From IMG/VR virus record IMGVR_UViG_3300042890_003920: DNA of 64,000 nucleotides; one strand, 5' to 3'. The position numbers were made by a program, and so were the translations under genes. The DNA comes from a virus. Taxonomy: Duplodnaviria; Heunggongvirae; Uroviricota; Caudoviricetes. Each line of letters begins with the position of its first letter. The stretch's first letter is position 1. This document shows positions 4,270-63,610 of this stretch, piece by piece. The notes beneath the pieces are model-generated. The model was not told the origin of the DNA. It did not search any database and worked only from the letters and a program-made list of their open reading frames with translations.

Positions 4270-4457
4270 ACAGCATTTACATCTTCATCACCTTCTTGGA
4301 ACTCCATATCTTCATAGTAACCTTTGGATGGTGTATAATGAACTTCTTGGAACCCATTACCTTCATCATCACGTGAGTAGATAACATCCATATCTAATGT
4401 TTCTGGGTTTGCTTCGGCAAACTTTTGTAATTGTTCGATATATTCTCTTAGTTTCAT
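4257..4457 (-). CDS. hypothetical small acidic protein
   Basis: ORF 66 aa. Confidence 0.45.
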   Translation of the reverse strand: MKLREYIEQLQKFAEANPETLDMDVIYSRDDEGNGFQEVHYTPSKGYYEDMEFQEGDEDVNAVCIN

Positions 4458-4828
4458 TTTATATTTAATTGTTTTAGTTTATCTTCTCTTATTTCTGCAA
4501 TTGATCTAGTATGTAATAACATTTCTTTTTTAATCTTCCAATGCCAATATTGTGTATAAGGATCAAAAAACGGTATGAAGTCTTTATGTATGTAACCATT
4601 GGTTAGTTTAATAGTTTCATCTTGTTTAAAGTATAAAACTGCACCAGGTTTATCTTTAGATGTGAATGTAATGAATATTTCATTATTACTACTCAATATA
4701 TAATCTTTATTCTTTATAACAAGATAGGTTTCTTTATAATACTTATACTTTGGATAGTAAGTTAAGAATGAAGCAAGCCAAAATATACTTATTACTACCA
4801 GTAATACTGAAGTCAAGATTAGTATCAT
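4454..4828 (-). CDS. membrane-anchored hypothetical protein with family-B-like C-terminal tail (AEIREDKLKQLNIK)
   Basis: N-terminal TM helix; C-terminal RE.KL..L motif; ATGA overlap with upstream gene. Confidence 0.55.
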   Translation of the reverse strand: MILILTSVLLVVISIFWLASFLTYYPKYKYYKETYLVIKNKDYILSSNNEIFITFTSKDKPGAVLYFKQDETIKLTNGYIHKDFIPFFDPYTQYWHWKIKKEMLLHTRSIAEIREDKLKQLNIK

Positions 4829-5121
4829 TATATTTTAGGATAAACTCTTGATTTAGAAACTTCAATAACCATCTTAACTTTATCTTCTGTAACTTCAAGA
4901 ATTTCACCATTTATACTACCAGACATAACAGGAGTATAAACTAGGTCACCTTGCTTCATAGTAGGTGTATATTCTTTTCTTTTCTTTTCAGTTTGTAATG
5001 TTCTGTAAGCCGCATAAACTATAAATGAACCTAAGAAGGCTAATAGTAATAATAGAATTAGATTTGTATATAAGATTGCATCTTGCATTGCTAAATCAGT
5101 AACCGGTAGTTTTGCGTTCAT
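4828..5121 (-). CDS. hypothetical membrane protein
   Basis: ORF 97 aa with central hydrophobic segment. Confidence 0.5.
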   Translation of the reverse strand: MNAKLPVTDLAMQDAILYTNLILLLLLAFLGSFIVYAAYRTLQTEKKRKEYTPTMKQGDLVYTPVMSGSINGEILEVTEDKVKMVIEVSKSRVYPKI

Positions 5122-5122
5122 A

Positions 5123-5578
5123 TTATATTTCTAGTTTAATGTATTTCGAATCTTCTTTATAATCAATGAACGTAATGTCGGTCACCTCATCTTCAATACT
5201 ATCTTTTATCTTTTGTTTGGTTTCTTCTGAGATTGTGAATAGTTTCATTACTGATTTATAGATAGACCCAAAAGTCTGTTGTCTACTTTTTATATCATAT
5301 ACTTCTACTAAGCCATCCTTATAGTCATACGAGAACCATAATCCTTCCACCCATACACTCTGTTCTCTTTTTATATTTAGTGTCTTATCTAACGCTATAT
5401 CTCTCCAATATGATATAGTCAATGAGTCTACTATTGGTTTAATCCAAGTTAGTAAATTTCTATCATCTACTTCATCCTCTGGAAAGTTTACCCAATATGA
5501 TTTACCATCAGGTCTTTCGATGGTAGCTCTTCTTTCGTCCGTATTATGACCTGAGTATCTACAAGGTTGTTTTGTCAT
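5123..5578 (-). CDS. hypothetical protein (start moved to MTKQPCRYSG)
   Basis: host-type -7 box TATCTTTG (plus 5583..5590) sits between ORF-track start and this Met; the transcript would be near-leaderless. Confidence 0.5.
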   Translation of the reverse strand: MTKQPCRYSGHNTDERRATIERPDGKSYWVNFPEDEVDDRNLLTWIKPIVDSLTISYWRDIALDKTLNIKREQSVWVEGLWFSYDYKDGLVEVYDIKSRQQTFGSIYKSVMKLFTISEETKQKIKDSIEDEVTDITFIDYKEDSKYIKLEI

Positions 5579-5582
5579 ATTA

Positions 5583-5590
5583 CAAAGATA
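5583..5590 (-). promoter_or_regulatory. Bacteroidota sigmaA-type -7 box (TATCTTTG)
   Basis: reverse complement of caaagata immediately upstream of ATG at 5576..5578. Confidence 0.5.
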
Positions 5591-5594
5591 CAAT

Positions 5595-6245
5595 TTATAT
5601 TTCAGTCTCACAAGAAGACATCACTTCATTTATCTTCTTTTCTCTACTATCTGCAATTATCTGATAGATATAATCGGTAAGACCTTCTTGTTTAAGAGTA
5701 TCTATATTATTGAAAACACTTCTACTTTCTACATAATCTTCTATGAAGAATGGTTGATTCTGTTTTAACCAATCAATCCAAGCCCTTTGACTATTAATAT
5801 CAATATTTGGTTTATCCCATTCTTGTTGAATAACTTCACAGTTATCGAATGATGGTAAATGACCGATATATGAACCTATCAATTTAATATTTATTTTTAG
5901 ATGATCGTTATTTCTTGGATCAAACTGGTAAGAATTTATTAGTTTATCTTTGAGTGTTTTACCAACTAAAGTAAATTTTATCTGACCTTCGTGATAGATA
6001 CAAAGAGCTATCTTTGTGTTTTGTAGTTTTGATGGATAATTTCCCTGAGCTAACGCACCACCTTGATACAATCCTTCTTGATAAGCTTTGGTTTTTAAAG
6101 CCGTTTTTAGATGATTCTGTGGTGTATCATAGATTACTTTACCACCAATATAAAAACCTCTTAGTTCTTCTACTGGTGAGAATGAGCCGTCTTTTTTAAT
6201 GATTGGTAGTATTTTTATTATGTCACCGTCTTTTAGTTTGTACAT
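5595..6245 (-). CDS. hypothetical protein, 216 aa
   Basis: long ORF. Confidence 0.55.
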   Translation of the reverse strand: MYKLKDGDIIKILPIIKKDGSFSPVEELRGFYIGGKVIYDTPQNHLKTALKTKAYQEGLYQGGALAQGNYPSKLQNTKIALCIYHEGQIKFTLVGKTLKDKLINSYQFDPRNNDHLKINIKLIGSYIGHLPSFDNCEVIQQEWDKPNIDINSQRAWIDWLKQNQPFFIEDYVESRSVFNNIDTLKQEGLTDYIYQIIADSREKKINEVMSSCETEI

Positions 6246-6254
6246 GATTTTAAC

Positions 6255-6551: not shown

Positions 6552-6555
6552 AGTT

Positions 6556-7067: not shown

Positions 7068-7286
7068 TTATATCAATTTATTTAATTTTTTATCTCTTTC
7101 TACTTCTAAGGTAGCATCTTCAAATTGTCCCAATAAAAGATAGTATGAATCATTATCATAGTTATCATTGACTTTAACAATTAAATTAGCATCAAACTTT
7201 GAAGTACCAATATAGTCGATTACTTTATATACTTCACCTTCACTTAATCGGTAACCATCCTTTTTTATACATCTTACCCACTTCAT
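7068..7286 (-). CDS. family-B small protein (MKWVRCIKKDGY...ERDKKLNKLI)
   Basis: N-terminal MKxVxC motif, G.VYKV, C-terminal R.KKLNKLI tail. Confidence 0.6.
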   Translation of the reverse strand: MKWVRCIKKDGYRLSEGEVYKVIDYIGTSKFDANLIVKVNDNYDNDSYYLLLGQFEDATLEVERDKKLNKLI

Positions 7287-7675: not shown

Positions 7676-7786
7676 ATTACATTAATAGTATTGTTAATAC
7701 AAGTATTATACCGAGTATTACTCTTGCTATAGACCAATACTTAGCTTCTTTGGCATTTTTCTTTGCGGTTTCTTCAAATGGATTCA

Positions 7787-10431: not shown

Positions 10432-10818
10432 TTACTCTAATATTTTATTTAATTGTTTATCTCTATATAATTCAATAGAGAATAATTGTTTTATATTTTC
10501 TTTTGTTAGTTCGATATATTGTTTACCTTCCTTAAGCATTGCTCTATCTTTTATTCTTCTTAAAGCTTCTTTAACATCTACTGATAATGATAATGTAGAA
10601 TTATCAACACCTTCTTTTAATACTGGTTCTTGCCATACAGGATGAGTATAAACTTTATAGTTATCTATATCAAATGAGAGTTTAAGTGTTTCGAGTGATA
10701 TAATAGGTTCTGTTGAAAGACTTATATTTTGGTGGAGTTTTTCTAGGTCTTGATCTTTCGTTTCTAGATTGATAGTATATGGAAGTTGCATCATTGTTAT
10801 GATTGCGTCTATTGTCAT
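10432..10818 (-). CDS. hypothetical protein with family-B tail (ELYRDKQLNKILE)
   Basis: C-terminal motif. Confidence 0.55.
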   Translation of the reverse strand: MTIDAIITMMQLPYTINLETKDQDLEKLHQNISLSTEPIISLETLKLSFDIDNYKVYTHPVWQEPVLKEGVDNSTLSLSVDVKEALRRIKDRAMLKEGKQYIELTKENIKQLFSIELYRDKQLNKILE

Positions 10819-11006
10819 AGTATTTGATTTAGTTTATCTTCTCTTAATTCTTGTACAGTAGCAAAGTTTACTTTGTGATACCGAGAAGAGTTCCAAGGTA
10901 TATCAGTATGGTTTTCTAATTGGAATGATTGTGAGGAGGAAAGTATTACCTTATACCATTCTCCTTTTATCAGAAATCTTGAACCTCTTACACACAGAAC
11001 TTTCAT
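10815..11006 (-). CDS. family-B small protein (MKVLCVRGS...LREDKLNQIL)
   Basis: MKVxCV start, G.WYKV, C-terminal tail. Confidence 0.6.
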   Translation of the reverse strand: MKVLCVRGSRFLIKGEWYKVILSSSQSFQLENHTDIPWNSSRYHKVNFATVQELREDKLNQIL

Positions 11007-11022: not shown

Positions 11023-11122
11023 TAGTCAGGACAGGATTCGAACCTGTATGTAACTTTATGTTTCCACTCCGTCTATAGTTACTACGGTATACTTAGCGTC
11101 TTACCAATTCCGCCACCTGACT
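11023..11122 (-). tRNA. tRNA (class-II-like, isotype undetermined; D-arm resembles tRNA-Leu)
   Basis: 7-bp acceptor AGTCAGG/CCTGACT, D-arm GCG-GAATTGGTAAGA-CGC, T-arm ACAGG-TTCGAAT-CCTGT; about 99 nt with a non-canonical anticodon/variable region; own -7 box at 11187..11194. Confidence 0.65.
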
Positions 11123-11208: not shown

Positions 11209-11442
11209 TTATATAATCTTATTTATTTGTTGTTCTCTCCATTTATCTAATTCCATAAAGTATTTCATCATGTAAGCATAGTACTGGTTATTATCATCAG
11301 TAATCCATACTGCTATATCACCATCTAAAGAAAATATCTTATCTACGGTATAAACTTTCTGTAGGGTTAGACCATCTATTTTAACACCATCAGGATAATG
11401 TTTGTTGATGGCTATATTATTTATACAAATGATTTGGTTCAT
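11209..11442 (-). CDS. family-B small protein (…LDKWREQQINKII)
   Basis: C-terminal tail motif. Confidence 0.55.
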   Translation of the reverse strand: MNQIICINNIAINKHYPDGVKIDGLTLQKVYTVDKIFSLDGDIAVWITDDNNQYYAYMMKYFMELDKWREQQINKII

Positions 11443-12009: not shown

Positions 12010-12456
12010 ATGAAACATTTAAAAAAATTTAATGAAAGTTTAGAACCAGTTGAGATCGATGAGTTAAAAGACTTCTGTGAGACATCACTCGCTTATCTAT
12101 TAGATGATGGGTATCAAGTTAGTGTATATGAATCAAGATTTAAAGATGTATCTGTAAGAGATAAAGTAAAGTATCCTGAGAAAGAACATACAATTGTAAG
12201 TTTGGGTTTAAAAGGAAAAATGGGTTATAGGTTATTCGATTGGAATGATATAAAAGATTATTACATACCATTTCTTCAAATGTTAGTAAGAAGATATGAA
12301 TTACTACCTTTCGGAATGTATGATAAGATTTGTTATTTTAATACCGAAGGTGGTTTTAGATATTTATCATTAGATCAAGTTATAAATGATAGGGTTGGCT
12401 CAGAACTTGGTAGTCGTTTGTGGGGAATAAATATAATGATAGTAGATAAGATATGA
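12010..12456 (+). CDS. family-A protein (MKHLKKFNES…DFCETSLAYLLDDG…WNDIKDYYIPFL)
   Basis: true start at ATGAAACAT directly after TAATATATACATTATT motif; ORF-track N-extension rejected. Confidence 0.7.
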   Translation: MKHLKKFNESLEPVEIDELKDFCETSLAYLLDDGYQVSVYESRFKDVSVRDKVKYPEKEHTIVSLGLKGKMGYRLFDWNDIKDYYIPFLQMLVRRYELLPFGMYDKICYFNTEGGFRYLSLDQVINDRVGSELGSRLWGINIMIVDKI

Positions 12457-12893
12457 AACATTTGAAAAGATATAATGAAAGTTTACAACCTAATGAGGTT
12501 GACGAGTTAAAAGACTTCTGTGAGACTTCATTGGCTTATCTATTAGATGATGGATATAATGTTGATGTTTCTATAAGAAATTCAGTAGGGTATCCAGGAA
12601 ATAATCAAGTAATCGTAAGTTTGGGTTTACCTACATATAGTGAAAGTGGTTTACTGGATTATAAAAGGTTCCATTGGAATGATGTAAAAGATTATTACAT
12701 ACCATTTCTTCAAATCTTAGTAAGAAGATATGAGTTGCTGCCTTATAGAGGTGAGGGTTATGTTTATTTTAATGGTGAGATGGGATTTGACTATTTCTCA
12801 TTAGATGAAGTAATAGATGATACGGTCAGTGGTATGAATCACATTGGTAGTAGTTTATGGGGTATAAATATAAAAATAGTAGATAAGATATAA
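12453..12893 (+). CDS. family-A protein, recent tandem duplicate of previous
   Basis: high nucleotide identity of first about 100 bp to 12010..; ATGA overlap. Confidence 0.7.
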   Translation: MKHLKRYNESLQPNEVDELKDFCETSLAYLLDDGYNVDVSIRNSVGYPGNNQVIVSLGLPTYSESGLLDYKRFHWNDVKDYYIPFLQILVRRYELLPYRGEGYVYFNGEMGFDYFSLDEVIDDTVSGMNHIGSSLWGINIKIVDKI

Positions 12894-13749: not shown

Positions 13750-15000
13750 ATGATACAATCTATAATAGGAACAAGTTTTACCGGAGGTTATAATCCACCT
13801 TTACCATTTGACATAACTGCTAACTGGAGTTTGACAACACCTGCTGTTGTAGATGAGGTATCTTTTAAAACTTTTCTAGAAAGTGGTGAAGATGGAGATG
13901 ATGAGACAAATGAGTTAACAGGTGTAGTCATTACTGACTTCTTACTTGAAGGAAACAGGTTAACTTGTAATCTTTCTGCTAGTGGTTATAATTTTTACCT
14001 TAGTTATACAGAAGTTTCAGTTGTAAATAGTATAGGTAATATTGTAGGATTAGAAAATTTGAATTTAAGTGTTAATCAAATAACATCATTCGATCCCTCT
14101 ATTGCATTACCTAGTTCATTACTTAGTTTAGCTTTAGGTGTCAATCAAATAACATCATTCGATCCCTCTATTGCTTTACCTAGCAGTTTACAACAATTAA
14201 GTTTAAGTGATAATCAATTAACATCATTTGATCCCTCTATTACTTTGCCTAGCAGTTTACAACAATTAAGTTTAAGTGATAATCAATTAACATCATTTGA
14301 TCCCTCTATTGCTTTACCTAATTCATTGTTAGAATTAAGTTTAAGTTATAATCAAGTATCGATGAACTTTACCCCAAGTTTACCATTACCCAGTTCATTA
14401 CAATATTTAAGCTTGGATAATTCTAATATAGTTACATTTGATCCAGCATATGATTTGCCTAGCAGTTTACAACAATTAAGTTTAAGTGATAATCAAATAG
14501 TGAATTTTACTCCAAGTAACTCGCTTGGGGGTGGATTACAATATTTAGATTTAAGTGATAATCAAATAGTAACATTTGATCCTGTTGCAGCATTACCAAG
14601 TTCATTACAATCAATATTCTTAAACCGCAATCAAATTGTGACATTTGATCCCACTATAGCTTTACCTACTGGATTAACAAGTTTAGATTTAACTGGTAAT
14701 CAAATTGTGACATTTGATCCCACTATAGCTTTACCTACTGGATTATTATACTTACAATTAGCGGATAATCAAATTGTTACATTTGATCCTAGCATTACGT
14801 TACCAAATTCATTAATTGTTTTAAATTTAGTTAATAATCAAATGACAACAGCTGGTTATACTGCATCTGAACCATGGGCAAATGCTATGTCTGTGATTCC
14901 TGGGAGAGGTAGTGTATATTTTGGTGCTAATCCAAATTCTGTAAGTGGAACAAATCTTGGAACAATATTACAATCTAAAGGTTGGAGTGTAAACGTATAA
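13750..15000 (+). CDS. leucine-rich-repeat protein (about 24-aa LRR units, L..L.LS.NQITSFDPS)
   Basis: about ten tandem LRR units encoded by 72-bp DNA repeats 14070..14830; N-terminus MIQSIIGTSFTGGYNP shared with next gene. Confidence 0.65.
   Translation: MIQSIIGTSFTGGYNPPLPFDITANWSLTTPAVVDEVSFKTFLESGEDGDDETNELTGVVITDFLLEGNRLTCNLSASGYNFYLSYTEVSVVNSIGNIVGLENLNLSVNQITSFDPSIALPSSLLSLALGVNQITSFDPSIALPSSLQQLSLSDNQLTSFDPSITLPSSLQQLSLSDNQLTSFDPSIALPNSLLELSLSYNQVSMNFTPSLPLPSSLQYLSLDNSNIVTFDPAYDLPSSLQQLSLSDNQIVNFTPSNSLGGGLQYLDLSDNQIVTFDPVAALPSSLQSIFLNRNQIVTFDPTIALPTGLTSLDLTGNQIVTFDPTIALPTGLLYLQLADNQIVTFDPSITLPNSLIVLNLVNNQMTTAGYTASEPWANAMSVIPGRGSVYFGANPNSVSGTNLGTILQSKGWSVNV
14070..14830 (+). repeat. 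tandem about 72-bp coding repeats (LRR units)
   Basis: repeated …aatcaaataacatcattcgatccctctattgctttacctag… blocks. Confidence 0.7.
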
Positions 15001-15014: not shown

Positions 15015-15752
15015 ATGATACAATCTATAATAGGAACAAGTTTTACAGGAGGTTATAATCCACAAGGTCCATCATTTAGACTTATGTTTACAGATATAAG
15101 TTTTGCTAATACCCTAGTAGGGGATGCGTCAAATGTTAATGATTGGAATACATATTTAGATTTACCTCTTTTGGGTACACCTTTCACTAGTGTAAACGTT
15201 AGTGGTGATGAAGTGTCTTTGTATGGCGGAGTAGGTATTACATTAAAAACTTCTGCATTTACTATTAATCTAAAAAAAAATGAAGTTCCTTATTTAGTTT
15301 CTGTAGATGATGAAAGTGGAGTGATTGTGGAATTACAAGAAGAAACTTTTTCAAGTCAATCATTATTAACAACTGTATCTTTACCACAACTAATTACTGC
15401 AGATATTTTCTGTTTTAATGGTTGTGACAATTTAGCCATTATTAATTTACCACAGTTAACAACTGCAGGTGTTGGCTGTTTTAATACTTGTGACAATTTA
15501 GCCATTATTAATTTACCACAGTTAACAACTGCAGGTGCTGGATGCTTTGCTGGTTGTAGTTTAACAACAGTAACATTACCTCTCTGTACAAACTTAGGTG
15601 GCGGTGTTTTAAATGATAATGTGTTTTCAGACATAATTGGAAACACAATTTCTTTAACTATACCTGAGTCTTTAATGACTTGTAATTCAGGAAATCCAGA
15701 TGGTGATATTCAATACTTGCAGGCAAATAACACAGTAACAATAATAAGTTAG
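15015..15752 (+). CDS. BspA-type LRR protein, N-terminal paralog of 13750..15000
   Basis: identical first 16 aa and upstream aaagtataat; internal repeat LPQLTTAG.GCF..CDNLAIINLPQLTTAG. Confidence 0.6.
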   Translation: MIQSIIGTSFTGGYNPQGPSFRLMFTDISFANTLVGDASNVNDWNTYLDLPLLGTPFTSVNVSGDEVSLYGGVGITLKTSAFTINLKKNEVPYLVSVDDESGVIVELQEETFSSQSLLTTVSLPQLITADIFCFNGCDNLAIINLPQLTTAGVGCFNTCDNLAIINLPQLTTAGAGCFAGCSLTTVTLPLCTNLGGGVLNDNVFSDIIGNTISLTIPESLMTCNSGNPDGDIQYLQANNTVTIIS

Positions 15753-16869: not shown

Positions 16870-17406
16870 TTATTTAAAGAATGATTTTAATTTGGTTAGA
16901 ACAGATTTATTTTCTTGTTTATATCCATCTATTATAAATTCAAACTCTGTTATATAAGATTCTAAAACATCATCAGTATCAGTATCATAATAAAGACCTG
17001 ATTTTATATCATCATTGATTAGTTTATTTACTTGGTAAAATAATTCTGTTTTACGATGAGGCCAGTGTTGTCTAGCAGCTTCTAAGTCACGTGTTACTTC
17101 TATTATGACATCTTTTTTATTTTTACGAGTATGTCCCATTTGTCTAGCATATTGTTTAAGTTCATATTGATTAGTAAGTCTGGTTAAGAATGGTATCATA
17201 TGGTCTTTTATATCGGACCATAATCTAGGATTCTCATTTAATTCTAGTGTAAGTTTGAAACTTAAACCTAAACCACTTCTAACTAACGTTATAGAAATAT
17301 TTAATTCTTCATCTAATAGATAAGCTAGATTCATTTCACAGAAGTCTTGTAGTTCTTCTTTGAAGGTGTCACCTACTGCTTCATTGAATGGTTTAATATG
17401 TTTCAT
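16870..17406 (-). CDS. family-A protein (MKHIKPFNEA…DFCEMNLAYLLDEE…WSDIKDHMIPFL)
   Basis: family motifs. Confidence 0.65.
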   Translation of the reverse strand: MKHIKPFNEAVGDTFKEELQDFCEMNLAYLLDEELNISITLVRSGLGLSFKLTLELNENPRLWSDIKDHMIPFLTRLTNQYELKQYARQMGHTRKNKKDVIIEVTRDLEAARQHWPHRKTELFYQVNKLINDDIKSGLYYDTDTDDVLESYITEFEFIIDGYKQENKSVLTKLKSFFK

Positions 17407-24906: not shown

Positions 24907-24907
24907 A

Positions 24908-50578: not shown

Positions 50579-51019
50579 ATGAAATATTTAAAACCATTTA
50601 ATGAATCACTTAAAGAAGAAACTGAATTGTTACAGGAGTTCTGTGATCTTAACTTGGCTTATCTTGTTGATGACGGTTTTAAAACTACAATAGAATCTGA
50701 TAATTATTCAAAAAGTCTTTACTTTACTAAAAACTATGATGGTAGGTTGTATTATAGTGATACATTCGAGTGGGATGAAATCAAGAATACGTTTATTCCT
50801 TTTCTGACATTATTAGAAAGAAGATATGGTGAGTACTATAAATTAGGTGAAAGTAGATTTAGATTACTTACGATAACGTATATTGAGTTTAATGATGCCG
50901 GTGAGAGAAATGGATTAAACACTGACAATATTTCATTAGATGATATAATAGATGTCAATGATGGTAATGTAGGTATTGATTCAATCGTATGTATAAAAAT
51001 TACATTAAGAAAGAAATGA
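50579..51019 (+). CDS. family-A protein
   Basis: MKYLKPFNES…EFCDLNLAYLVDDG…FEWDEIKNTFIPFL. Confidence 0.65.
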   Translation: MKYLKPFNESLKEETELLQEFCDLNLAYLVDDGFKTTIESDNYSKSLYFTKNYDGRLYYSDTFEWDEIKNTFIPFLTLLERRYGEYYKLGESRFRLLTITYIEFNDAGERNGLNTDNISLDDIIDVNDGNVGIDSIVCIKITLRKK

Positions 51020-51621: not shown

Positions 51622-51822
51622 TTATAAACTTAGTAACTTATCTATTTGTTTCTTTCTAAACTCTGAAATTGATATAAATTGTTCACGTCTTCCGATTACA
51701 CGTGGTCTTGAATCCCAACCATAAACATAAACATGAGTAGTGTACTCAGATGAGGCAGCATCGTATTTTTTACCGGTTCTTATATCAACTACTTTAAATG
51801 TTTGTCTCATATTACTCATCAA
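51622..51822 (-). CDS. family-B-tail small protein (…FRKKQIDKLLSL)
   Basis: tail motif. Confidence 0.5.
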   Translation of the reverse strand: MMSNMRQTFKVVDIRTGKKYDAASSEYTTHVYVYGWDSRPRVIGRREQFISISEFRKKQIDKLLSL

Positions 51823-52039
51823 GTATTATATTTAATTTATCCTCTCTTGCTTGTTGTATTGATATAAATCTCTGTGGTCCATAAAGACCAGGGTTTCCAA
51901 CATCATTTTTAATAGTTATCACACCATCATACTTAACCGCAAAAACTTCATATTGTTTTCCGATGGTTAGTGCTGGTTGATAATGAGTATCAGTGTTATT
52001 GATACAAACTATAAAATCTCCTTTATTGAACATATACAA
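51812..52039 (-). CDS. family-B small protein (…AREDKLNIILDE)
   Basis: tail motif. Confidence 0.55.
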   Translation of the reverse strand: MYMFNKGDFIVCINNTDTHYQPALTIGKQYEVFAVKYDGVITIKNDVGNPGLYGPQRFISIQQAREDKLNIILDE

Positions 52040-52048
52040 ATATACAAA

Positions 52049-52288
52049 TTAAATTCCTAATTCATTTAATTTTTTTTCACGTACTTCTTGTAAATCCTGG
52101 AATTGACTTGTATTTAAAGAAGCTGGATAATCATTTACTTTTCTATATTTATCATCATCACATTTCATGATAAAAGATTTATGTGGTTTAAAATATGAAT
52201 CATAAATAGTAGGACCTGCTTCTAGATCATAAATTTGACCAGCCGTTATAAAGTATCCGGGTAAAGTTTCTATAGCGACTAGTCTCAT
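52049..52288 (-). CDS. family-B small protein (…VREKKLNELGI)
   Basis: tail motif. Confidence 0.55.
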   Translation of the reverse strand: MRLVAIETLPGYFITAGQIYDLEAGPTIYDSYFKPHKSFIMKCDDDKYRKVNDYPASLNTSQFQDLQEVREKKLNELGI

Positions 52289-52517: not shown

Positions 52518-52937
52518 ATGAAGTACTTGAAAACATTTAACGAAGGTTTATCCGATTTAACTTATTTAGAGATTTTAGATTTTTGTGAAGAAAACTTAGC
52601 TTATTTAATGGATGATGGTTTTAATGTTAGTGTACAGTCTGATAGATTTATGGATGAAATAGATTGGGAAGTAAGATTGAGAAATGATGAGAATCTTAAA
52701 TGGGATTATATTGAAAATCATTTAGTTCCGTTTTTTATACATTTAGATAAAGAATTTGAACTATGTAATATATCCAGTACTCATTCAGAATTAGAATTTT
52801 TTGTACGAGAATATGGTATAAATCACGGTTATAAGTGGCTTTCTATAAAAGATTTACTAAATCATGAAGGTGATTATGATAAATTAGTCGGTAATGTAGT
52901 AGAAAGTATAACATTTTATATAAAAAGTAGAAAATAA
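52518..52937 (+). CDS. family-A protein
   Basis: MKYLKTFNEG…DFCEENLAYLMDDG…LKWDYIENHLVPFF. Confidence 0.65.
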   Translation: MKYLKTFNEGLSDLTYLEILDFCEENLAYLMDDGFNVSVQSDRFMDEIDWEVRLRNDENLKWDYIENHLVPFFIHLDKEFELCNISSTHSELEFFVREYGINHGYKWLSIKDLLNHEGDYDKLVGNVVESITFYIKSRK

Positions 52938-53362
52938 TGAGATATATTAAGACATTTGAAGCAGATAATTGGTGGGTTGATAAGGTTGATAAAACTGAAT
53001 TAAAATCATTTGCGGAGTCATATTTAGCATATTTAATGGACGAAGGTTTTGTAATAGGTATAAATTTAGATCGTCATGAAGATGATGCTGCGGTTGATTT
53101 ACATTTAACTAATCCAGATAATACGATATATGAGAACGATATACCTTTTTTATGGGAAGATATAAAAGATCATTTTATTCCGTTTATGACAATGTTTAGT
53201 AAGAAATATAGTTTTTCTGTTTTGAAGTTATATGCTTCTCCTGGTTCTGAGGTTAGATCATTTAGATCGGGAACTGATAGTTTATTCCGTTTATTATCCG
53301 ATAGATTTGAAGTTGAAGAAGAGTTAAGAGAAATAGAAATAAGTAATATAAGAAGAGTATAA
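52937..53362 (+). CDS. family-A protein
   Basis: MRYIKTFEAD…FAESYLAYLMDEG…WEDIKDHFIPFM. Confidence 0.6.
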   Translation: MRYIKTFEADNWWVDKVDKTELKSFAESYLAYLMDEGFVIGINLDRHEDDAAVDLHLTNPDNTIYENDIPFLWEDIKDHFIPFMTMFSKKYSFSVLKLYASPGSEVRSFRSGTDSLFRLLSDRFEVEEELREIEISNIRRV

Positions 53363-53823
53363 TGAAATATTTAAAAAGATTTAACGAGTCTCGTCATGAA
53401 ATACTTACCAATCCTAAAAGATTTACTTTTGAATTTCAGGAAGGGTTAAAAGATTTCTGTGAAACACATTTAGCTTATTTAGTTGATGATGGTTATTCAA
53501 TTAAGGTTGCTACTAATACTATGTCATTAAAAAGATTTGATGAACAAAATGATAATCAAATTTATGCTAGTTTAGTTGATTGTGGTGAAGAGATTGTTGA
53601 TACTATAGATGATCCACGTAACTTTAATTGGGATAATATAAAAAATAGTTTCATACCATTTATCCAACACTTATCTAAACAATATAATATAGGTAAAATT
53701 TATGTGTATGGATATTCACAGAATGGTGAGGAAATGTTATCTTATACTTATACACTACAACAAGTATTAGATGATGATAATATTGCACCAGTAATTTACT
53801 CTATATTTTTAAGGATTGACTAA
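53362..53823 (+). CDS. family-A protein
   Basis: MKYLKRFNES…DFCETHLAYLVDDG…FNWDNIKNSFIPFI. Confidence 0.65.
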   Translation: MKYLKRFNESRHEILTNPKRFTFEFQEGLKDFCETHLAYLVDDGYSIKVATNTMSLKRFDEQNDNQIYASLVDCGEEIVDTIDDPRNFNWDNIKNSFIPFIQHLSKQYNIGKIYVYGYSQNGEEMLSYTYTLQQVLDDDNIAPVIYSIFLRID

Positions 53824-53991: not shown

Positions 53992-54207
53992 ATGAAGTAT
54001 GTAAAGTGTTTATATGTTGAAATTGGTTCAAGACTAACGGTAAATAAAATCTATGAAGTATTTAATCACCTTGTAATTGGTGATGATAGTTATGTTGAAA
54101 TTATAGATAATACTGGTGATAGATCTACGTATTTAGTAAATAAAGATTGGTTTGAAGATGCGAGTGCAGAAATAAGAGATAAGAAATTAAATGATTTAGG
54201 AATATGA
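53992..54207 (+). CDS. family-B small protein (MKYVKCLYVE…IRDKKLNDLGI)
   Basis: family motifs. Confidence 0.6.
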   Translation: MKYVKCLYVEIGSRLTVNKIYEVFNHLVIGDDSYVEIIDNTGDRSTYLVNKDWFEDASAEIRDKKLNDLGI

Positions 54208-54521
54208 AATTAAGTACTACAAACCAAACAATCAAAGATGATTTACAATCATTTGTAGATGGAACTTATGATGGTATTTTAACACCAGAACAATTAAAAA
54301 TGGCACTTGAATTATCATTCTTATTTAATCATATTACTACTGATATAGATACAATTATATTCGAGTATGATACTTTTAAAGTAAAGGTTTCTGGTGTTCA
54401 TGACTTACCTTTTGAGTACTCAGAGGAAACGGTTATACATACTATAATAAAAGAAGAAGGTTTTAAATCCGCATTAAAACAATTTATTAGAGATAATAGA
54501 ATTACAAAATTATTACAATGA
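54204..54521 (+). CDS. hypothetical protein (tail …RDNRITKLLQ)
   Basis: ORF 105 aa. Confidence 0.5.
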   Translation: MKLSTTNQTIKDDLQSFVDGTYDGILTPEQLKMALELSFLFNHITTDIDTIIFEYDTFKVKVSGVHDLPFEYSEETVIHTIIKEEGFKSALKQFIRDNRITKLLQ

Positions 54522-54778
54522 TATTATCAAGAGATCAAAATTATAAAGTAGGAGACTTAGTAAATAACACTAGTGTTCATATGAATGAGCAAGCAATTGT
54601 TTTAAAAGTTCATGAGAATGAAGGTTTCTATAGTAGATGTTTAATTGAGTATCAACATTCACTAACAGTTCAAGGAAGAAAAGTTCAAAGTTGGGTCAGT
54701 GCTAAAGATTTAAGATATGATTTACAATTTTTAAGAGATAAAAAGTTAGAAGTAATTTTACAATCTACATCCTTATGA
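54518..54778 (+). CDS. family-B-tail protein (…LRDKKLEVILQST)
   Basis: tail motif. Confidence 0.5.
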   Translation: MILSRDQNYKVGDLVNNTSVHMNEQAIVLKVHENEGFYSRCLIEYQHSLTVQGRKVQSWVSAKDLRYDLQFLRDKKLEVILQSTSL

Positions 54779-54954
54779 AACTATGTAAGATAACTGGACA
54801 CTTTTGGAAACACAACTATGAACTTATAAAAAAGGATGATCCTATTTTAACAGAGGTTAGAATTTGTAGCTTCTGTAAAAGAAAAGATATTATAGTTGAA
54901 CCAACTCTAGCAGATAAACGAGATATGAAGTTAAGACAATTAGGAATAAAGTAA
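54775..54954 (+). CDS. 59-aa CxxC…CxxC protein with family-B tail (…RDMKLRQLGIK)
   Basis: ATGA overlap with previous gene; below track cutoff. Confidence 0.4.
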   Translation: MKLCKITGHFWKHNYELIKKDDPILTEVRICSFCKRKDIIVEPTLADKRDMKLRQLGIK

Positions 54955-54981: not shown

Positions 54982-55332
54982 TTAATAGAAAAAGTCGTCA
55001 AGGGTTGATTTTTTATTATAGTACTCTTTCTCTAACCTTTGTTGTTCTAATAGTTGTTGTATTTTTTTATTCTCAACTATACTAGCAACTTTCTTGTCAC
55101 GTACCAATACGGTGGTCGTATAACAATCTTTATCAATTTTATGACTTCTTCCTACAACCGAATAAGTTTCTTCACCTAAAGTGATTATTTCGTCGTTATT
55201 AGGTATTGGTATTGGATAATCAGATTCAATTTCAGTAACTATATCTTGTGAAACTAAATCTAATTTATAATCTCTGATTTCATCTTTCTCAAGTCCGTTA
55301 TAATCAAACTCTATTTGTAATTTATATTTCAT
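54982..55332 (-). CDS. hypothetical protein
   Basis: ORF 116 aa. Confidence 0.5.
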   Translation of the reverse strand: MKYKLQIEFDYNGLEKDEIRDYKLDLVSQDIVTEIESDYPIPIPNNDEIITLGEETYSVVGRSHKIDKDCYTTTVLVRDKKVASIVENKKIQQLLEQQRLEKEYYNKKSTLDDFFY

Positions 55333-55834
55333 ATAGTAATTGTCTTAATTTTAATTCTCTTAGTAATTTTGTATCTCCTTTTCTTTTAATGTAAGAAACT
55401 ATTTCTTTATTTATTTCTTGTTCGGTTTTTTCAACTTTAAGCCAATCAGATTCTCTTTCATATCCGATACTTGTTTTAAATATATCATCATGAAAACAAT
55501 TTAGATTTACTGTAATTGTTGGTAAACCATCACCTTTAAACTTATAGTCATTGTCAAGAAATCTTCTTTCACTACCATAGTAACTTTCATCGATTTCATA
55601 TCCCCAACCTTGTAGAAATGAGAATACTCTTTCAAAGAATTGTGATTTTGTTCTGTTGTATTGTTTACTTACTTTTACTTCACCAGTTAAAAATTCCATA
55701 CCAGATGTACGAACTTTATCAAACTTTGAGAAACGTACATTAGGATCTTCGGCAGATTCTGATTTATCAATCATATTCTTTATCCCAAGTTTATCATATA
55801 TTTCTTTGATAGTAAGTATTCCTTTATCTTCCAT
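55322..55834 (-). CDS. hypothetical protein
   Basis: ORF 170 aa. Confidence 0.5.
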   Translation of the reverse strand: MEDKGILTIKEIYDKLGIKNMIDKSESAEDPNVRFSKFDKVRTSGMEFLTGEVKVSKQYNRTKSQFFERVFSFLQGWGYEIDESYYGSERRFLDNDYKFKGDGLPTITVNLNCFHDDIFKTSIGYERESDWLKVEKTEQEINKEIVSYIKRKGDTKLLRELKLRQLLYEI

Positions 55835-56298
55835 TATCCTAATAAAAATTTTAATTTTTCATTACGTTCAACCATTACTTTGAATTGTGGATTTTTAAAT
55901 ACCCATTCTCCAAATACTTTTGCAGGAATTCTTTTAACTCTGCAATTATCATCTTCACTATGTACCCAAGCCCCAGTTGTAGTAGCAGTACGTTGATTTC
56001 TATCCCACGATCTATGGAATACTTTTACGGTAACCGACTTTTTATTTTTTCTGATAACACGAACTTTATCATTTGGATGTAATCCACCTTCGTATCTACC
56101 TTTGTTATTGAATTCTATTACTTCATCTTTGTTGATATTCTCAACAACAATTTCAAAGATAGCTTGTTTCTTTTCAGCTTCTCTTGCTTTATTTTCCGTT
56201 TGTAACTGAATAATTTCTCTTTCTAAACTTTTTATAGTTCTGAATCGGGCTCTAATTTGTTCTTGTGTTTCGTTATACTTAACAATTACTTCTCTCAT
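55834..56298 (-). CDS. hypothetical protein
   Basis: ORF 154 aa, ATGA overlap. Confidence 0.5.
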   Translation of the reverse strand: MREVIVKYNETQEQIRARFRTIKSLEREIIQLQTENKAREAEKKQAIFEIVVENINKDEVIEFNNKGRYEGGLHPNDKVRVIRKNKKSVTVKVFHRSWDRNQRTATTTGAWVHSEDDNCRVKRIPAKVFGEWVFKNPQFKVMVERNEKLKFLLG

Positions 56299-56307: not shown

Positions 56308-56607
56308 TTATAGTATTTTGTTTATTTGTTGTTCTCTCCAGTCTTCTACTTTCATAAATAGATTTGCTGGTAACCATCCTTGTTTTGATGGTCCACCATT
56401 GCCACGAAAATCTTTTAAGATAACTGCATCTATAAGTTCATTTGTTTCTATATCAATAAAAACCTTACCTATCATATTTTCTACATCATAGATTGTACCA
56501 GGTGTTAGCCAGTCAAATGTGAATGGAGTTCTATCGTTATATAACGCTTTCCCGTTAGAATGGAACTCTACATCAGATATATTTGATATACAAATCATTT
56601 GTAACAT
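56308..56607 (-). CDS. family-B small protein (MLQMICISN…VEDWREQQINKIL)
   Basis: family motifs. Confidence 0.6.
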   Translation of the reverse strand: MLQMICISNISDVEFHSNGKALYNDRTPFTFDWLTPGTIYDVENMIGKVFIDIETNELIDAVILKDFRGNGGPSKQGWLPANLFMKVEDWREQQINKIL

Positions 56608-59573: not shown

Positions 59574-59786
59574 TTACTCAGGATTTATAATGCTATCTAT
59601 TTTCTTATCTCTTACTTCTGCCTTTCTTAAACTTGCGTAGTAATCATATTTATTTTTGAAACCTAACTCTTCTAAAAGTAATCTTTCGTGTTTGTAAAAG
59701 TCATCTTGTGTTAAAACTCCTAATGTTTTACAAAAATGATTATAATCATCTAAATCATCATAATATGCGCTTCTCGAATCTCCCAT
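59574..59786 (-). CDS. small protein with family-B-like tail (…EVRDKKIDSIINPE)
   Basis: tail motif. Confidence 0.5.
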   Translation of the reverse strand: MGDSRSAYYDDLDDYNHFCKTLGVLTQDDFYKHERLLLEELGFKNKYDYYASLRKAEVRDKKIDSIINPE

Positions 59787-59870: not shown

Positions 59871-60347
59871 ATGATATTAAAATGTGTAACTGATAAATTT
59901 CCAGATCGTGTAACACGTGGTAAGTTATATCCGGTAGTGTTTACAGATGTATGGGGAAATAAACTACCACAGATAATTCAAAAGGGTTATTGTAGTATTA
60001 TCGATGATAATAAAAAAATAGCAACTGTTGATTTAGGAAAAAAGGAATACTTTATTGATTTAGAAGAGTGGAGAGAACAACAAATAAAAATAATAATAAA
60101 AAATAGTATGAGTCATTTAGAAGGTTACAATCAGTATTTAGTAAGTAATGCAAACACATTACTTAATTATATAAAGGAAAACAATGTTGAATATAACATA
60201 TCAAGTTTAGTTGAGTTGATAGATAATATAAATAACTCACTTGGAGATAAGTTAGATTTTTATGCTGAGCAGTTGGATAGGACTATTGCAATGGCACAGC
60301 TCGACTTTGGATACGTTCATAACAGAGAGCATAATTCAGTTCACTAA
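59871..60347 (+). CDS. protein with internal family-B motif (…DLEEWREQQIKIII…) plus C-terminal extension
   Basis: ORF 158 aa. Confidence 0.55.
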   Translation: MILKCVTDKFPDRVTRGKLYPVVFTDVWGNKLPQIIQKGYCSIIDDNKKIATVDLGKKEYFIDLEEWREQQIKIIIKNSMSHLEGYNQYLVSNANTLLNYIKENNVEYNISSLVELIDNINNSLGDKLDFYAEQLDRTIAMAQLDFGYVHNREHNSVH

Positions 60348-60382: not shown

Positions 60383-60393
60383 ATATATAGTAT

Positions 60394-60843: not shown

Positions 60844-61250
60844 AGCATTTAAAAATATATGAAGCATTTGATGTTTTTAAAGACAAATTAGATGAATTAC
60901 AAGACTTTTGTGATACATATTTGGCTTATATGACAGATAAAGGTGTAGTTTTAACAGTTACTCCTAATAGTCGTTTATCTAGTACTATATTTGTACTTTC
61001 TGTTAGGTCTGTTGAAAGTAGAGATTTTGAATGGAATGACATAAAAGATTATTTCATACCATTTTTAGAAGTACTTACTAATAAAATTGGTCGTGGAAAC
61101 ATCATGACAAATTCTGATCCAAATCATGAATTTAAGTTTGTAAACAATAGAGGTGTATTTTATCGTAGTTTAGAAGATGTTATCGCTGATAAAGTTCCTA
61201 ATATTATGCCTTCAATAGAATCATTATCGTTCGCTATTAAGTATTATTGA
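60840..61250 (+). CDS. family-A protein
   Basis: MKHLKIYEAF…DFCDTYLAYMTDKG…FEWNDIKDYFIPFL. Confidence 0.65.
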   Translation: MKHLKIYEAFDVFKDKLDELQDFCDTYLAYMTDKGVVLTVTPNSRLSSTIFVLSVRSVESRDFEWNDIKDYFIPFLEVLTNKIGRGNIMTNSDPNHEFKFVNNRGVFYRSLEDVIADKVPNIMPSIESLSFAIKYY

Positions 61251-61532
61251 TAGTTTTTCATTTCTAATTTCTTGTAAGGCAAATGCTTCTAACCCTTCTA
61301 ATTCAACCAATTCAGGTGAATGTTTTATTCCTTTTTCATCTATTATAACTGTGAAGTGTGTACCATTTTTTTTGAATGTTATAAGTTTCATTGTACCATT
61401 CCAACCATATGATGATTTCACACCTAATTGTTTATCAACAAAATTTAATAAAATCGGTGAGGTTTCTTCGGTAAGCCAATTGTAAATTATCATATTAAAA
61501 TTTGTGTGATACTGGTATATTCTGACCAACAA
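61224..61532 (-). CDS. family-B-tail protein (…LQEIRNEKLSIILNSER)
   Basis: tail motif. Confidence 0.5.
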   Translation of the reverse strand: MLVRIYQYHTNFNMIIYNWLTEETSPILLNFVDKQLGVKSSYGWNGTMKLITFKKNGTHFTVIIDEKGIKHSPELVELEGLEAFALQEIRNEKLSIILNSER

Positions 61533-61953: not shown

Positions 61954-62001
61954 TTATATTTTATTTATTTTTTTGAAAAAGTTGAATTTAATATATACTT
62001 A

Positions 62002-62469
62002 ATGAAGTATTTAAAAAGATTTAATGAATCGGTAGATTTTGAAGAAAAGTTAAGAGATTTTTGTGAAACACATTTAGCTTACCTATTAGATGAGGGATTT
62101 GAAGTAGTTTTAAACGATTTAGATGAAACTTATGATTGTGAGATTACTATTAAAAGAGAAGATCAAAGAACATTTACTTGGGATGAAGTTAAAGATCATA
62201 TAGTTCCTTTTATAATACATCTTAACAAAGAATATGAATTATATAAAAGTGATGACTGTGATGATGATGAATATTTACCTGTAAAAGTTGGAGATGTTGG
62301 TTATATTCAATCTGAACTTTCTTCTTTATACGAACCATTCTCAATCGAAAATATTTCTGATGAGAGTTATGAACCATTCTTAGGTTACAAAATTGGACCT
62401 GATGAGTATAAAAATGATATGGGTACAAGATTATCTTCTATTGTTATTTACGCTGCTCTCGCAAACTAA
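62002..62469 (+). CDS. family-A protein (start MKYLKRFNES)
   Basis: family motifs; aatttaatatatactta abuts ATG; ORF-track N-extension rejected. Confidence 0.65.
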   Translation: MKYLKRFNESVDFEEKLRDFCETHLAYLLDEGFEVVLNDLDETYDCEITIKREDQRTFTWDEVKDHIVPFIIHLNKEYELYKSDDCDDDEYLPVKVGDVGYIQSELSSLYEPFSIENISDESYEPFLGYKIGPDEYKNDMGTRLSSIVIYAALAN

Positions 62470-62493
62470 TAATCTACTTTTCATATAATCTGT

Positions 62494-62706
62494 ATGAGTT
62501 ACGTTATAGATTTTGGTGGTACAATTATGGAAGTTCCCTTAACATTTTTCAAAAAAAACTTAGAATATAAAATAATTCGTCATGATCTTATTGGAGATAC
62601 GCACTTCATAAATTATGGTGGAATGACTATTTCTGTTCATAATAACATTTGGCAAAAAGTTCAAATAGATTTAAGAGATAGTAAAATAGATATTATATTA
62701 GAATAA
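62494..62706 (+). CDS. small protein with tail QIDLRDSKIDIILE
   Basis: ORF 70 aa. Confidence 0.45.
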   Translation: MSYVIDFGGTIMEVPLTFFKKNLEYKIIRHDLIGDTHFINYGGMTISVHNNIWQKVQIDLRDSKIDIILE

Positions 62707-62713
62707 TTTTTTA

Positions 62714-62721
62714 TATCTTTG
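62714..62721 (+). promoter_or_regulatory. plus-strand -7 box TATCTTTG giving near-leaderless start at 62727
   Basis: box ends 5 nt before ATG. Confidence 0.4.
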
Positions 62722-62726
62722 CGGTT

Positions 62727-62939
62727 ATGATAGTAGTATGTATAAATGAAAAATTAGCGGGGTTCACCTATGGTAGAATCTATCGTGTCACCGTCAAAGA
62801 TGATATTTACGGTTCAGGTTTACATTGGGTTATTTCAGATAGTGGTTTAGGTAAAGGAGTATTTTTAAGAAACTCTTTTATGACAATAAGTGAATGGAAA
62901 GCAGCAATAAAAAAAGAAAGTTATAATGATCTTATATGA
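62727..62939 (+). CDS. family-B-like small protein (MIVVCINEK…)
   Basis: MxVVCI start, G.IYRV. Confidence 0.5.
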   Translation: MIVVCINEKLAGFTYGRIYRVTVKDDIYGSGLHWVISDSGLGKGVFLRNSFMTISEWKAAIKKESYNDLI

Positions 62940-63327
62940 TATAGATAGTAATGAAATTATTAAAGTATTAAACTTTACTTATGATGAAGATTTTTCTAAC
63001 TACCGAAATTTGAGGAGAGCAGAAATGAAAAATATATCTTTTGATGTAGGTGAAGAATCTCATGAGTATATTAAGGATTGGTATTTAGAAAGTTTACCAG
63101 GTGGTAAACTACGTTTTGCTTCAGAATATAAACGTGATTTATATATTACTGATTTAAAAGATAAACAAATCAAACTAATAAATTGTTTTATCAAGTCTGT
63201 TGATGATAAAGATACATTTCTTACTGTTGGAATATATTGTGATAACTATATTATTGGTGATTCTACTACCTTCCCTGAATTAAAATCACTTTATCGAAAT
63301 GCGGTTTTATCTGTTTTAGGAATATAA
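62926..63327 (+). CDS. hypothetical protein
   Basis: ORF 133 aa. Confidence 0.5.
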   Translation: MILYDIDSNEIIKVLNFTYDEDFSNYRNLRRAEMKNISFDVGEESHEYIKDWYLESLPGGKLRFASEYKRDLYITDLKDKQIKLINCFIKSVDDKDTFLTVGIYCDNYIIGDSTTFPELKSLYRNAVLSVLGI

Positions 63328-63356
63328 AAAAAGAGAACTAATGTTCTCTTTTTTAT
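63326..63356. terminator. bidirectional rho-independent terminator
   Basis: agagaac-taat-gttctct hairpin with A-run and T-run. Confidence 0.8.
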
Positions 63357-63610
63357 TTTAATATATCATTGATTTTTTCGTCTCTTATTTGAGCTTCTGT
63401 TTTTAAGTATTCACTTTTATGTGGGCAAAGTCCTGTACCAAACTTAACTAAGTACCAACCATCAACATGATTTTGTTTTGCATCTATTAAAACATCATAT
63501 GATTGTCCTTCGATAAGAGAACAGTCTCCCCATACTCTATCAGTAAACTCAATAGATTCTACACAAATCATTTTAATAAATCTAGTCGGGTCTTTCGGAG
63601 CTTGCATCAT
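63353..63610 (-). CDS. family-B small protein (…AQIRDEKINDILK)
   Basis: MICVES…G.SYDV, tail motif. Confidence 0.55.
   Translation of the reverse strand: MMQAPKDPTRFIKMICVESIEFTDRVWGDCSLIEGQSYDVLIDAKQNHVDGWYLVKFGTGLCPHKSEYLKTEAQIRDEKINDILK

Follow-up and report, generated by a model that had tools for sequence, protein, structure and literature searches.

About one gene in four on a 64,000-nt stretch of virus DNA (Caudoviricetes; IMG/VR record IMGVR_UViG_3300042890_003920), referred to here in its full length as the window, encodes a protein that carries the same short peptide, normally as its last element. This peptide, which we call the tail, is predicted to be an alpha-helix of ~15 residues, is selected at the amino-acid level, and is found both on an expanded family of small SH3-like barrel proteins and on bodies of unrelated fold. 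We postulate, tentatively, that the tail is a portable helix for docking or assembly.

A conserved peptide at the end of small proteins

The tail pattern R[DENQK].[KQN][LI]..[LI] was searched in the six-frame translation and at the C-termini of all open reading frames (ORFs) of the window. When only open stretches of 40 codons or more are counted in the six frames, it occurs 33 times within the last 16 residues; 100 codon shuffles average 0.25 and never exceed 2. The few remaining six-frame matches, located in short or off-frame stretches, are at about chance level. Among 141 non-overlapping genes (94% coding), it lies at most 8 aa from the C-terminus 32 times (0.2 in shuffles) and elsewhere twice, with no copy in the first 20 aa of any gene; when reversed, it is never C-terminal and is seen once elsewhere. 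Once degenerate copies are counted (genes at 5595, 42635, 54204, 62727, and 11451), ~37-38 genes, i.e., 26%, are carriers. This agrees with an earlier note on this DNA, which had claimed more than 35 tailed small proteins; the arrays that it listed (nine genes at 24102..26392, three at 51622..52288, and four at 53992..54954) are present, and its example tails were located at 24335, 25963, 53992, 10815, and 52049. The size range that it gave (60-110 aa) was too narrow, as carriers span 59-216 aa. Most of them are acidic (median isoelectric point 5.6 vs 8.0 in other small ORFs).

The logo of tailed relatives reads F(-7) [IKM] [TS](-5) [LI](-4) x E(-2) [WIYLF](-1) R(0) [EDN] x [KQ] [LI] N x [LI] [LGI], after which come 1-8 residues that vary, and structure prediction designates the tail as a ~15-residue alpha-helix, [ST][LI]xE[WYIL]R[EDN]x[KQ][LI]Nx[LI][LG], whose T/S-x-x-E start resembles a helix N-cap. 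A C-terminal helix, as had been suggested, is given by AlphaFold2 in both a barrel protein (25963..26181) and a member of the unrelated PHROG 3972 family. The suggestion that it is amphipathic fared less well: the hydrophobic moment is ~0.2 (range 0.19-0.42; on the same scale, 0.57 for the FtsA helix and 0.27 for MinD), the net charge is ~0, the invariant Arg is located within the Leu stripe, and the conserved residues, including this Arg and the polar E, K/Q, and N, cover most of the helix surface. Its weak amphipathicity and lack of net charge make binding to membranes or nucleic acids unlikely. A membrane-targeting helix of the MinD/FtsA type was rejected mainly on the charge, as the moment overlaps that of MinD and is not discriminating.

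Several other candidates were tried and rejected. A tag that needs a free C-terminus, e.g., an ssrA-like degron, does not fit residues that vary after the motif (GI, L, LK, LNE, LEDES, and others, giving a motif-to-stop spacing of 1-8 aa), nor the internal motif copies in 59871..60347 of the window and in P0201. Sliding-clamp consensus motifs are QL[SD]LF and Qxx[LIM]xx[FY][FY]; the tail logo is not of this clamp-binding or PIP-like type, as it has no pair of aromatic residues but an Arg that never varies and aliphatic L/I at +4, +7, and +8. The ...HRENDIKNAINLMFWGI ending had suggested a toxin of the CcdB/MazF kind, in which an SH3-like barrel is combined with a C-terminal helix ending in ...WGI; hhalign gave a probability of 0.2% between the barrel-family alignment (A2) and F-plasmid CcdB, and Pfam gave no CcdB match.

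Selection on the peptide and exchange of its DNA

Given that many tails run into the start of the next gene, a rival explanation would place the constraint in the nucleotides: the tail codons would serve the next gene's start (through translational coupling or as the A-rich leader common in Bacteroidota) or function as a promoter or a recombination site, and the peptide would be a by-product, much as the translational-coupling footprint considered in the earlier note. Of 37 tails, 24 indeed run into or directly adjoin the following start, and ATGA overlaps arise from many of the LGI* endings; direct-repeat families of 33-56 nt are present in tail DNA, and identical amino acids in paralogous tails use the same codon in 0.69 of comparisons vs 0.55 expected. 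We compared synonymous (pS) and non-synonymous (pN) divergence in nine orthologous tailed genes between the window and the syntenic contig L001 (65-86% amino-acid identity). The tail region has a pS of 0.318 (pN/pS 0.37), at the level of the bodies of tailed genes (0.352; pN/pS 0.39) and of other genes (0.313; pN/pS 0.24). Codon choice at conserved tail positions is near genome-wide usage, paralogous tails have a median nucleotide identity of just 57% (over 42 nt), and the frequent L/I, D/E/N, and K/Q exchanges need non-synonymous changes while the chemistry is retained. The tail is thus selected at the amino-acid level. The DNA footprint is rejected because of the background-level pS, the near-genomic codon use, the low nucleotide identity, and the 13 of 37 tails that have no adjacent start (nine gaps of 6-202 nt and four convergent gene ends). 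The variable distance to the stop codon (1-8 codons) and the internal copies also speak against it, and we regard it as largely refuted and very improbable.

Some recent DNA exchange between tails is nevertheless seen in the comparison of their sequences, as in the excess of shared codons over the expectation. A 56-nt junction repeat comprising the tail end and the MKVICV start of the next gene is 91% identical behind two unrelated bodies (24536-24591 and at 25150..25377), and 34 nt of tail DNA are 97% identical between 26171..26392 and 25963..26181, whose whole proteins are ~35% identical. Orthologues also exchange endings (LGI* vs ILNxx*). From this we infer that the tail is transferred from gene to gene by recombination where tails meet the following starts. 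The tails also have genome-specific flavours that span body families, i.e., Y at -1 and I at +8 in the contig L010, and W/L/I at -1 and L at +8 in the window. The finding would also illustrate how a short module spreads between neighboring genes via junction recombination.

Barrel proteins, unrelated bodies, and their distribution

The largest group of carriers, 22 proteins, is a single, loosely conserved paralogous family (alignment A2, mean column identity 21%) with the pattern MKVxC[IV] ... LTxGKxYxV ... F[IM]T[LI]xE[W]R[DE]x[KQ]LNx[LI]L, and a hidden Markov model (HMM) of the body alone retrieves exactly these 22 (Table 1). The MKVxC[IV] start and the G.xY.V block reported earlier are present, and both belong to this family. 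AlphaFold2, using the paralogue alignment, models 25963..26181 with a pLDDT of 90 as five strands and a C-terminal helix (residues 58-71, pLDDT 84-94), the five-stranded beta-barrel being of the SH3-like fold; matches of the model in BFVD are small uncharacterised phage barrels, and the PDB holds no sequence relative. Against Pfam DUF6501 the window proteins score 18.5-20.4 bits, under the cut-off of 23.8, and relatives found with the window profile pass DUF6501/DUF7244 (P0011 with 73 bits; P0016 with 55 and 49.6 bits). DUF7244 is assigned to the SH3 clan (PMC13164509). The core body appears to be a stand-alone SH3-like barrel of the DUF6501/DUF7244 type, a known but uncharacterised class.

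A profile search of 1.84 billion representative proteins gave 4,937 matches at E ≤ 1e-3, and among the top matches retrieved that are at most 170 aa long, 95 of 114 carry the tail. Long relatives (the tandem-repeat proteins P0008, P0011, and P0012) have up to 19-20 tandem barrels and no helix, two-barrel proteins (P0019, P0050, and P0070) bear it only behind the last barrel, and in gp38 of Olleya phage Harreka_1 the barrel is followed by another domain and no tail. Because barrels exist without the helix and two-barrel proteins bear it on the last barrel only, the helix is an add-on and not a part of the barrel fold. It is also not always terminal: in 59871..60347 the motif lies at about residue 68 of 158, and another ~82-83 residues follow.

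Besides this family, at least 11-16 carriers have other bodies, and the tail sits on at least three unrelated protein folds. A tail HMM trained solely on core proteins scored 11 non-core C-termini (4454, 5595, 10432, 24559, 25150, 25596, 44599, 54518, 54775, 59574, and 61224) above the best reversed-sequence score of 6.1 bits, which served as control, and the body HMM matched none of the 11. Further carriers (29182, 55322, 55834, and 62494) were recognised by the pattern only. The earlier idea that the carriers share nothing but the tail is thus right for these 11-16 proteins and wrong for the 22 paralogous barrels. The non-core tails cover the same span as the core tails, from about -5 to +9.

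With the exception of 24559..24906, a PHROG 3972 member, the non-core bodies had no informative Pfam or PHROG match. In this protein AlphaFold2 places a helix at residues 102-112 with a pLDDT of ~68, behind a low-confidence linker (~58), and comparison of its fold with SH3 gave no match. The homologue in Salmonella phage Shemara stops, tail-less, at ...PEIPDFLK, those of T5-like phages are tail-less with a different extension, and the metagenomic family comprises tail-less forms and a diverse tailed clade (50-97% identity) ending in ...PEIPxxLNRIDKVR[DE]KKLNxIL, one tailed member having 50 more residues beyond the tail. In the family of the 193-aa protein (29182..29763), which has no match in INPHARED, the tail is kept in nearly all members, to 34-44% identity, with the exception of the chimeric or truncated P0341. 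Further tailed bodies in related contigs include Cys-rich proteins and several of 100-300 aa.

Table 1 Tail carriers of the window, followed by members of the MK[YH]LKxFNE family. Support for carriers is given as HMM scores in bits unless stated otherwise
Position	Strand	Protein	Tail	Support
7068..7286	-	core barrel	LEVERDKKLNKLI	body 43.9, tail 18.0
10815..11006	-	core barrel	VQELREDKLNQIL	body 35.7, tail 20.1
11209..11442	-	core barrel	LDKWREQQINKII	body 49.2, tail 18.2
22254..22493	-	core barrel	SMSRDNKLKELGI	body 38.8, tail 16.5; L001 orthologue
24102..24338	-	core, gene 1 of 9 in array	IQNIREQKLNQLLNNE	body 38.8, tail 23.7
24335..24562	-	core, gene 2 of 9	IEQWREQQLDKLI	body 45.6, tail 23.3
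24559..24906	-	non-core, gene 3 of 9; PHROG 3972 alpha/beta body and linker	RIDKTREKKLNKLGI	phrog_3972 E 7.5e-25; tail 14.0
24908..25153	-	core, gene 4 of 9	KQKWRNNQLEKLGI	body 29.0, tail 20.4
25150..25377	-	non-core, gene 5 of 9; body MNFKIGDNVII...	IQQDRQDKLDKLGI	tail 7.8; no body HMM match
25367..25615	-	core, gene 6 of 9	LPEWRNKQLEELLDEF	body 44.6, tail 20.1
25596..25970	-	non-core, gene 7 of 9; 124 aa	TQILRDNKLNSILDESSMY	tail 10.0; no body HMM, Pfam, or PHROG match
25963..26181	-	core, gene 8 of 9	IQQLRDNKINQILND	AlphaFold2-modelled protein
26171..26392	-	core, gene 9 of 9	TAEVRENKINQILNES	body 54.3, tail 19.0
36326..36583	+	core; barrel included only with TTG start	LEQWRDKQLNILLNSK	body 49.3, tail 25.0
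40542..40748	-	core	IEEKRDKLLNDLLNK	body 46.5, tail 18.6
42635..42859	-	core barrel	VEQWKTNLRKMLDKKKIC (degenerate)	body 50.5, tail 15.7
43397..43651	-	core	KQQWRDYNLENILNG	body 44.0, tail 23.5
51622..51819	-	core, weak barrel; convergent 3' end	ISEFRKKQIDKLLSL	body 12.7, tail 19.2
51812..52033	-	core	IQQAREDKLNIILDE	body 48.8, tail 19.9
52049..52288	-	core	LQEVREKKLNELGI	body 36.9, tail 19.0
53992..54207	+	core	SAEIRDKKLNDLGI	body 45.4, tail 19.1
56308..56607	-	core	VEDWREQQINKIL	body 46.6, tail 21.1
59871..60347	+	core barrel	LEEWREQQIKIII (internal helix; motif codons 60072-60095)	body 43.4, tail 17.6
62727..62939	+	core barrel	ISEWKAAIKKESYNDLI (degenerate)	body 44.6, tail 14.3
63353..63610	-	core; convergent 3' end	EAQIRDEKINDILK	body 42.1, tail 18.5
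4454..4828	-	non-core; N-terminal hydrophobic segment, 124-aa body	IAEIREDKLKQLNIK	tail 11.6; no body match
5595..6245	-	non-core, 216 aa	IIADSREKKINEVMSSCETEI (9 aa before end)	tail 6.9, barely over control 6.1
10432..10818	-	non-core, 128 aa; 51-nt downstream gap	IELYRDKQLNKILE	tail 12.2
29182..29763	-	non-core, 193 aa	LEVLREMKLNELNIA	pattern match; homologues keep [IL]R[ED]xK[LF]xEL
44599..44868	-	non-core, 89 aa	LQETREIKLNIITK	tail 8.0
54204..54521	+	non-core, 105 aa	LKQFIRDNRITKLLQ (weak, doubtful)	by eye; tail 2.9
54518..54778	+	non-core, 86 aa	LQFLRDKKLEVILQSTSL	tail 6.5; pattern match
54775..54954	+	non-core, 59 aa, Cys/His-containing body; convergent 3' end	LADKRDMKLRQLGIK	tail 9.6
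55322..55834	-	non-core, 170 aa	LLRELKLRQLLYEI	pattern match alone
55834..56298	-	non-core, 154 aa	MVERNEKLKFLLG	pattern match alone
59574..59786	-	non-core, 70 aa; 51-nt downstream gap	KAEVRDKKIDSIINPE	tail 12.1
61224..61493	-	non-core, 89 aa	LQEIRNEKLSIILNSER	tail 11.4; tailed homologue L013 14535..14819 (624-kb contig)
62494..62706	+	non-core, 70 aa	QIDLRDSKIDIILE	pattern match; tail 5.9, at control level
2154..2705	-	MK[YH]LKxFNE family
12453..12893	+	MK[YH]LKxFNE family
16870..17406	-	MK[YH]LKxFNE family
31473..31982	-	MK[YH]LKxFNE family
38561..39031	+	MK[YH]LKxFNE family
50579..51019	+	MK[YH]LKxFNE family
52518..53823	+	MK[YH]LKxFNE family (three genes)
62002..62469	+	MK[YH]LKxFNE family
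L010 82..6541		MK[YH]LKxFNE family in relative
L013 3967..5431		MK[YH]LKxFNE family in relative
L013 18133..19560		MK[YH]LKxFNE family in relative

Similar tails were counted in other phages, each compared sequence having a codon-shuffle expectation of ~0.1-0.3. In 20 kb each, L001 has 21 tails, L010 (a 112-kb contig with ~40 consecutive small genes) has 34, and L013 (a 624-kb contig) has 12; 41 kb of LR756502, a published 642-kb megaphage, contain six, all on non-SH3 bodies. No tail was found in the first 50 kb of Flavobacterium phage immuto or in 40 kb of Sphingomonas phage PAU. Additional carriers are present in IMG/VR, on contigs up to 465 kb, and close homologues of window proteins (P0284, P0330, P0311, and P0298; 74-88% identity) are on contigs of 355-640 kb. 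ThyA from the window shares 50% identity with its counterparts in LR756502 and LR745206, which are published megaphages of >630 kb from freshwater and subsurface sites (PMC9723777). The window, part of a metagenome contig of 92.8 kb, probably derives from a genome of this scale. In cultured phages, the nearest matches come from Flavobacterium phage immuto (62%, for ThyA), from Sphingomonas phage PAU (59%), and from Tenacibaculum phage pT24 (43%, for the T4_Y16D-like 28862..29182). A Megablast search of INPHARED with 24 kb of the window gave no match, and the sole tblastn match of a two-barrel tailed protein to cultured phages was the tail-less Harreka gp38. A limited scan of cellular species genomes, with the patterns of one subgroup, found a single barrel-only locus, in a Treponema metagenome-assembled genome, and the family may perhaps be rare in cellular genomes. 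Overall, the motif recurs, often as large arrays, among related uncultured AT-rich large phages and megaphages.

A possible docking helix and its alternatives

We consider it quite possible, although with some doubt, that the tail is a portable docking or assembly helix. It is normally the last element in a greatly expanded family of stand-alone SH3-like barrel proteins, which are small and for the most part acidic; from there it would spread inside gene arrays through recombination at tail/start junctions, reach unrelated bodies, and work in trans as a common protein-protein interaction handle. Such a handle could either attach a multitude of variable proteins to a single partner, from the phage or the host, or let the carriers associate mutually, with the variable bodies supplying differing specificities. 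An intermolecular role is suggested because the barrel does not need the helix, because the helix is predicted to hang on a flexible linker in a non-SH3 carrier, and because the same polar residues and the invariant Arg are kept over three folds, which different cores would not be expected to demand.

Several points weigh against this proposal. A single partner would be heavily contested by the ~37 carriers encoded in 64 kb, and the helix, with its low hydrophobic moment, is too short for a stable coiled coil alone. Gene conversion could by itself account for both the genome flavours and the codon sharing above expectation, with no need for co-evolution with a partner. Moreover, the confident placement of the core-family helix by AlphaFold2 is compatible with a purely intramolecular capping role. 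In this rather unlikely alternative, the main rival, there is no shared partner: the helix caps or stabilises each domain, foreign ORFs became fused to the 3' ends of SH3-family genes in the arrays, and the helix was kept for folding, solubility, or protection of the C-terminus from host proteases. The high pLDDT of the helix in the core monomer model is in its favor, as are the junction repeats and codon excess, which indicate recombination and gene conversion, and SH3-like barrels with a packed C-terminal helix are common, e.g., Sso7d and chromo-like domains. However, the barrels of many relatives fold without the helix, that of the PHROG 3972 protein follows a low-confidence linker and is itself modelled with less confidence, and the Arg and polar positions persist, within families to 34-50% identity, in a manner unexpected from different cores.

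A special case of docking would be a sorting signal that routes unrelated small proteins to one destination, e.g., the inside of the capsid (as ejected proteins), a compartment built by the phage, or a protease that removes them at a set time. A short terminal peptide on unrelated proteins, with a flexible linker in at least one case and dozens of carriers in each genome, would suit such a signal, and so would the co-occurrence, in three lineages, of a second expanded family with a conserved N-terminal MK[YH]LKxFNE. It is nonetheless improbable, as the tail is sometimes internal and its distance to the C-terminus varies, no match to known cargo or degron motifs was found, and the arrays are surrounded by nucleotide-metabolism genes (ThyA, FolD), a setting more in keeping with an early-gene region than with structural modules. 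The boldest version of the docking proposal, a long shot, would make the helix the address label of an unrecognised sorting or assembly system of megaphages, in which the unrelated small early proteins of each genome, numbering tens to hundreds, bind one phage receptor or compartment, or co-assemble, the MK[YH]LKxFNE family being a possible counterpart. A single peptide used as bait could reveal the partner and define the full carrier set of a genome. Given that the gene content of megaphages is mostly without assigned function, and that about a quarter of the genes over 64 kb, as well as similar arrays in relatives of up to ~640 kb, carry the same short helix, one helix that crosses folds opens a way into a sizeable portion of viral "dark matter". 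The shared tail also offers a test of whether such phages organise their small early proteins via common docking or sorting.

Neighboring genes and known systems

The second expanded paralogous family is defined by a ~45-residue N-terminal region, MK[YH]LKx[FY]NES...LxDFCExxLAYLxDxGF, with variable C-terminal parts, and has 18-22 members in the window, 14 in L010, where they adjoin the tail-gene array, and four in L013 (examples in Table 1). No member has a Pfam or PHROG match, and the family accompanies the tail family in each of the three distinct lineages examined. Its first ten residues resemble the T4 capsid targeting sequence, MKTYQEFIAE. A role as counterpart of the tail is possible.

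A tRNA gene (11023..11122, minus strand; Rfam RF00005, 37 bits) lies between two tailed genes; its length of 100 nt points to a possible intron or long variable arm. The adjacent plus-strand genes 13750..15000, a leucine-rich-repeat (LRR) protein (LRR_4, E 6e-31), and 15015..15752 have identical first 12 residues, MIQSIIGTSFTG, and look like a local LRR gene duplication. Short collagen triple-helix repeats near the N-terminus (Pfam Collagen, E 5.6e-5 and 2.7e-9) are encoded by 267..2075 (minus) and 48721..50202 (plus), which may be fibre-like virion or adhesion proteins. An RK[HI]KI[RM][RN]IF element occurs three times at ~134-nt spacing in 35164..35560 (plus), at the end of the ORF 35164..35316 and in an apparently non-coding stretch before 35537; the arrangement is also present in L001, and the DNA repeat is weak (33 nt, 73% identity). 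Five nucleotides upstream of the tailed gene 40542..40748, a 486-aa protein (40754..42214, minus) combines DUF4874 and DUF4832 (E 3e-39 and 1e-44), a pair typical of glycoside-hydrolase-like proteins of Bacteroidota.

In Pfam, PHROG, and the literature we found no model or paper on the tail, its spread across folds, or its arrays. The statement in the earlier note that nothing like this is annotated holds for the tail, which matches no Pfam or PHROG model, but not for the barrel, which is of the DUF6501/DUF7244 type (SH3 clan), the window proteins scoring just under the DUF6501 cut-off. The Pfam models of these stand-alone phage SH3 proteins stop at the barrel and exclude the C-terminal helix. 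Known examples are the SH3 protein in the lysis module of Drexlerviridae (PMC13164509) and the tail-less Harreka_1 gp38. Such known examples are single genes, whereas the family in the window forms arrays and has tens of paralogues.

Short terminal peptides shared by unrelated proteins have precedents elsewhere. The T4 capsid targeting sequence is N-terminal, is removed by the prohead protease, and is carried by internal proteins encoded at polymorphic loci; the likeness consists in a short conserved terminal peptide on dissimilar small proteins in plastic clusters of large phages. The tail differs in being helical and C-terminal or occasionally internal (32 of 34 motif copies are at most 8 aa from the C-terminus and none is in the first 20 aa). 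Similarly, the cargo-loading peptides of encapsulins and the encapsulation peptides of microcompartments are terminal extensions of ~10-20 residues on unrelated proteins, often behind a flexible linker, and all are read by one receptor surface. They do not resemble the weakly amphipathic tail helix in sequence, and no shell gene was identified among the scanned window proteins. At the DNA level, the PeSL cassettes of T4-type phages, i.e., intergenic promoter and stem-loop elements conserved as DNA, are comparable in that repeated junctions between small genes of hyperplastic regions (here 56 nt and 34 nt) could aid modular shuffling. The tail repeat lies instead within coding sequence, extends across stop and start codons, and is retained chiefly at the protein level; a PeSL-like cassette was rejected since there is no excess of nucleotide conservation in tail pS or in the identity of paralogues. 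Conceptually, the tail resembles the terminal targeting peptides of T4, encapsulins, and microcompartments, but it shares none of their testable defining features.

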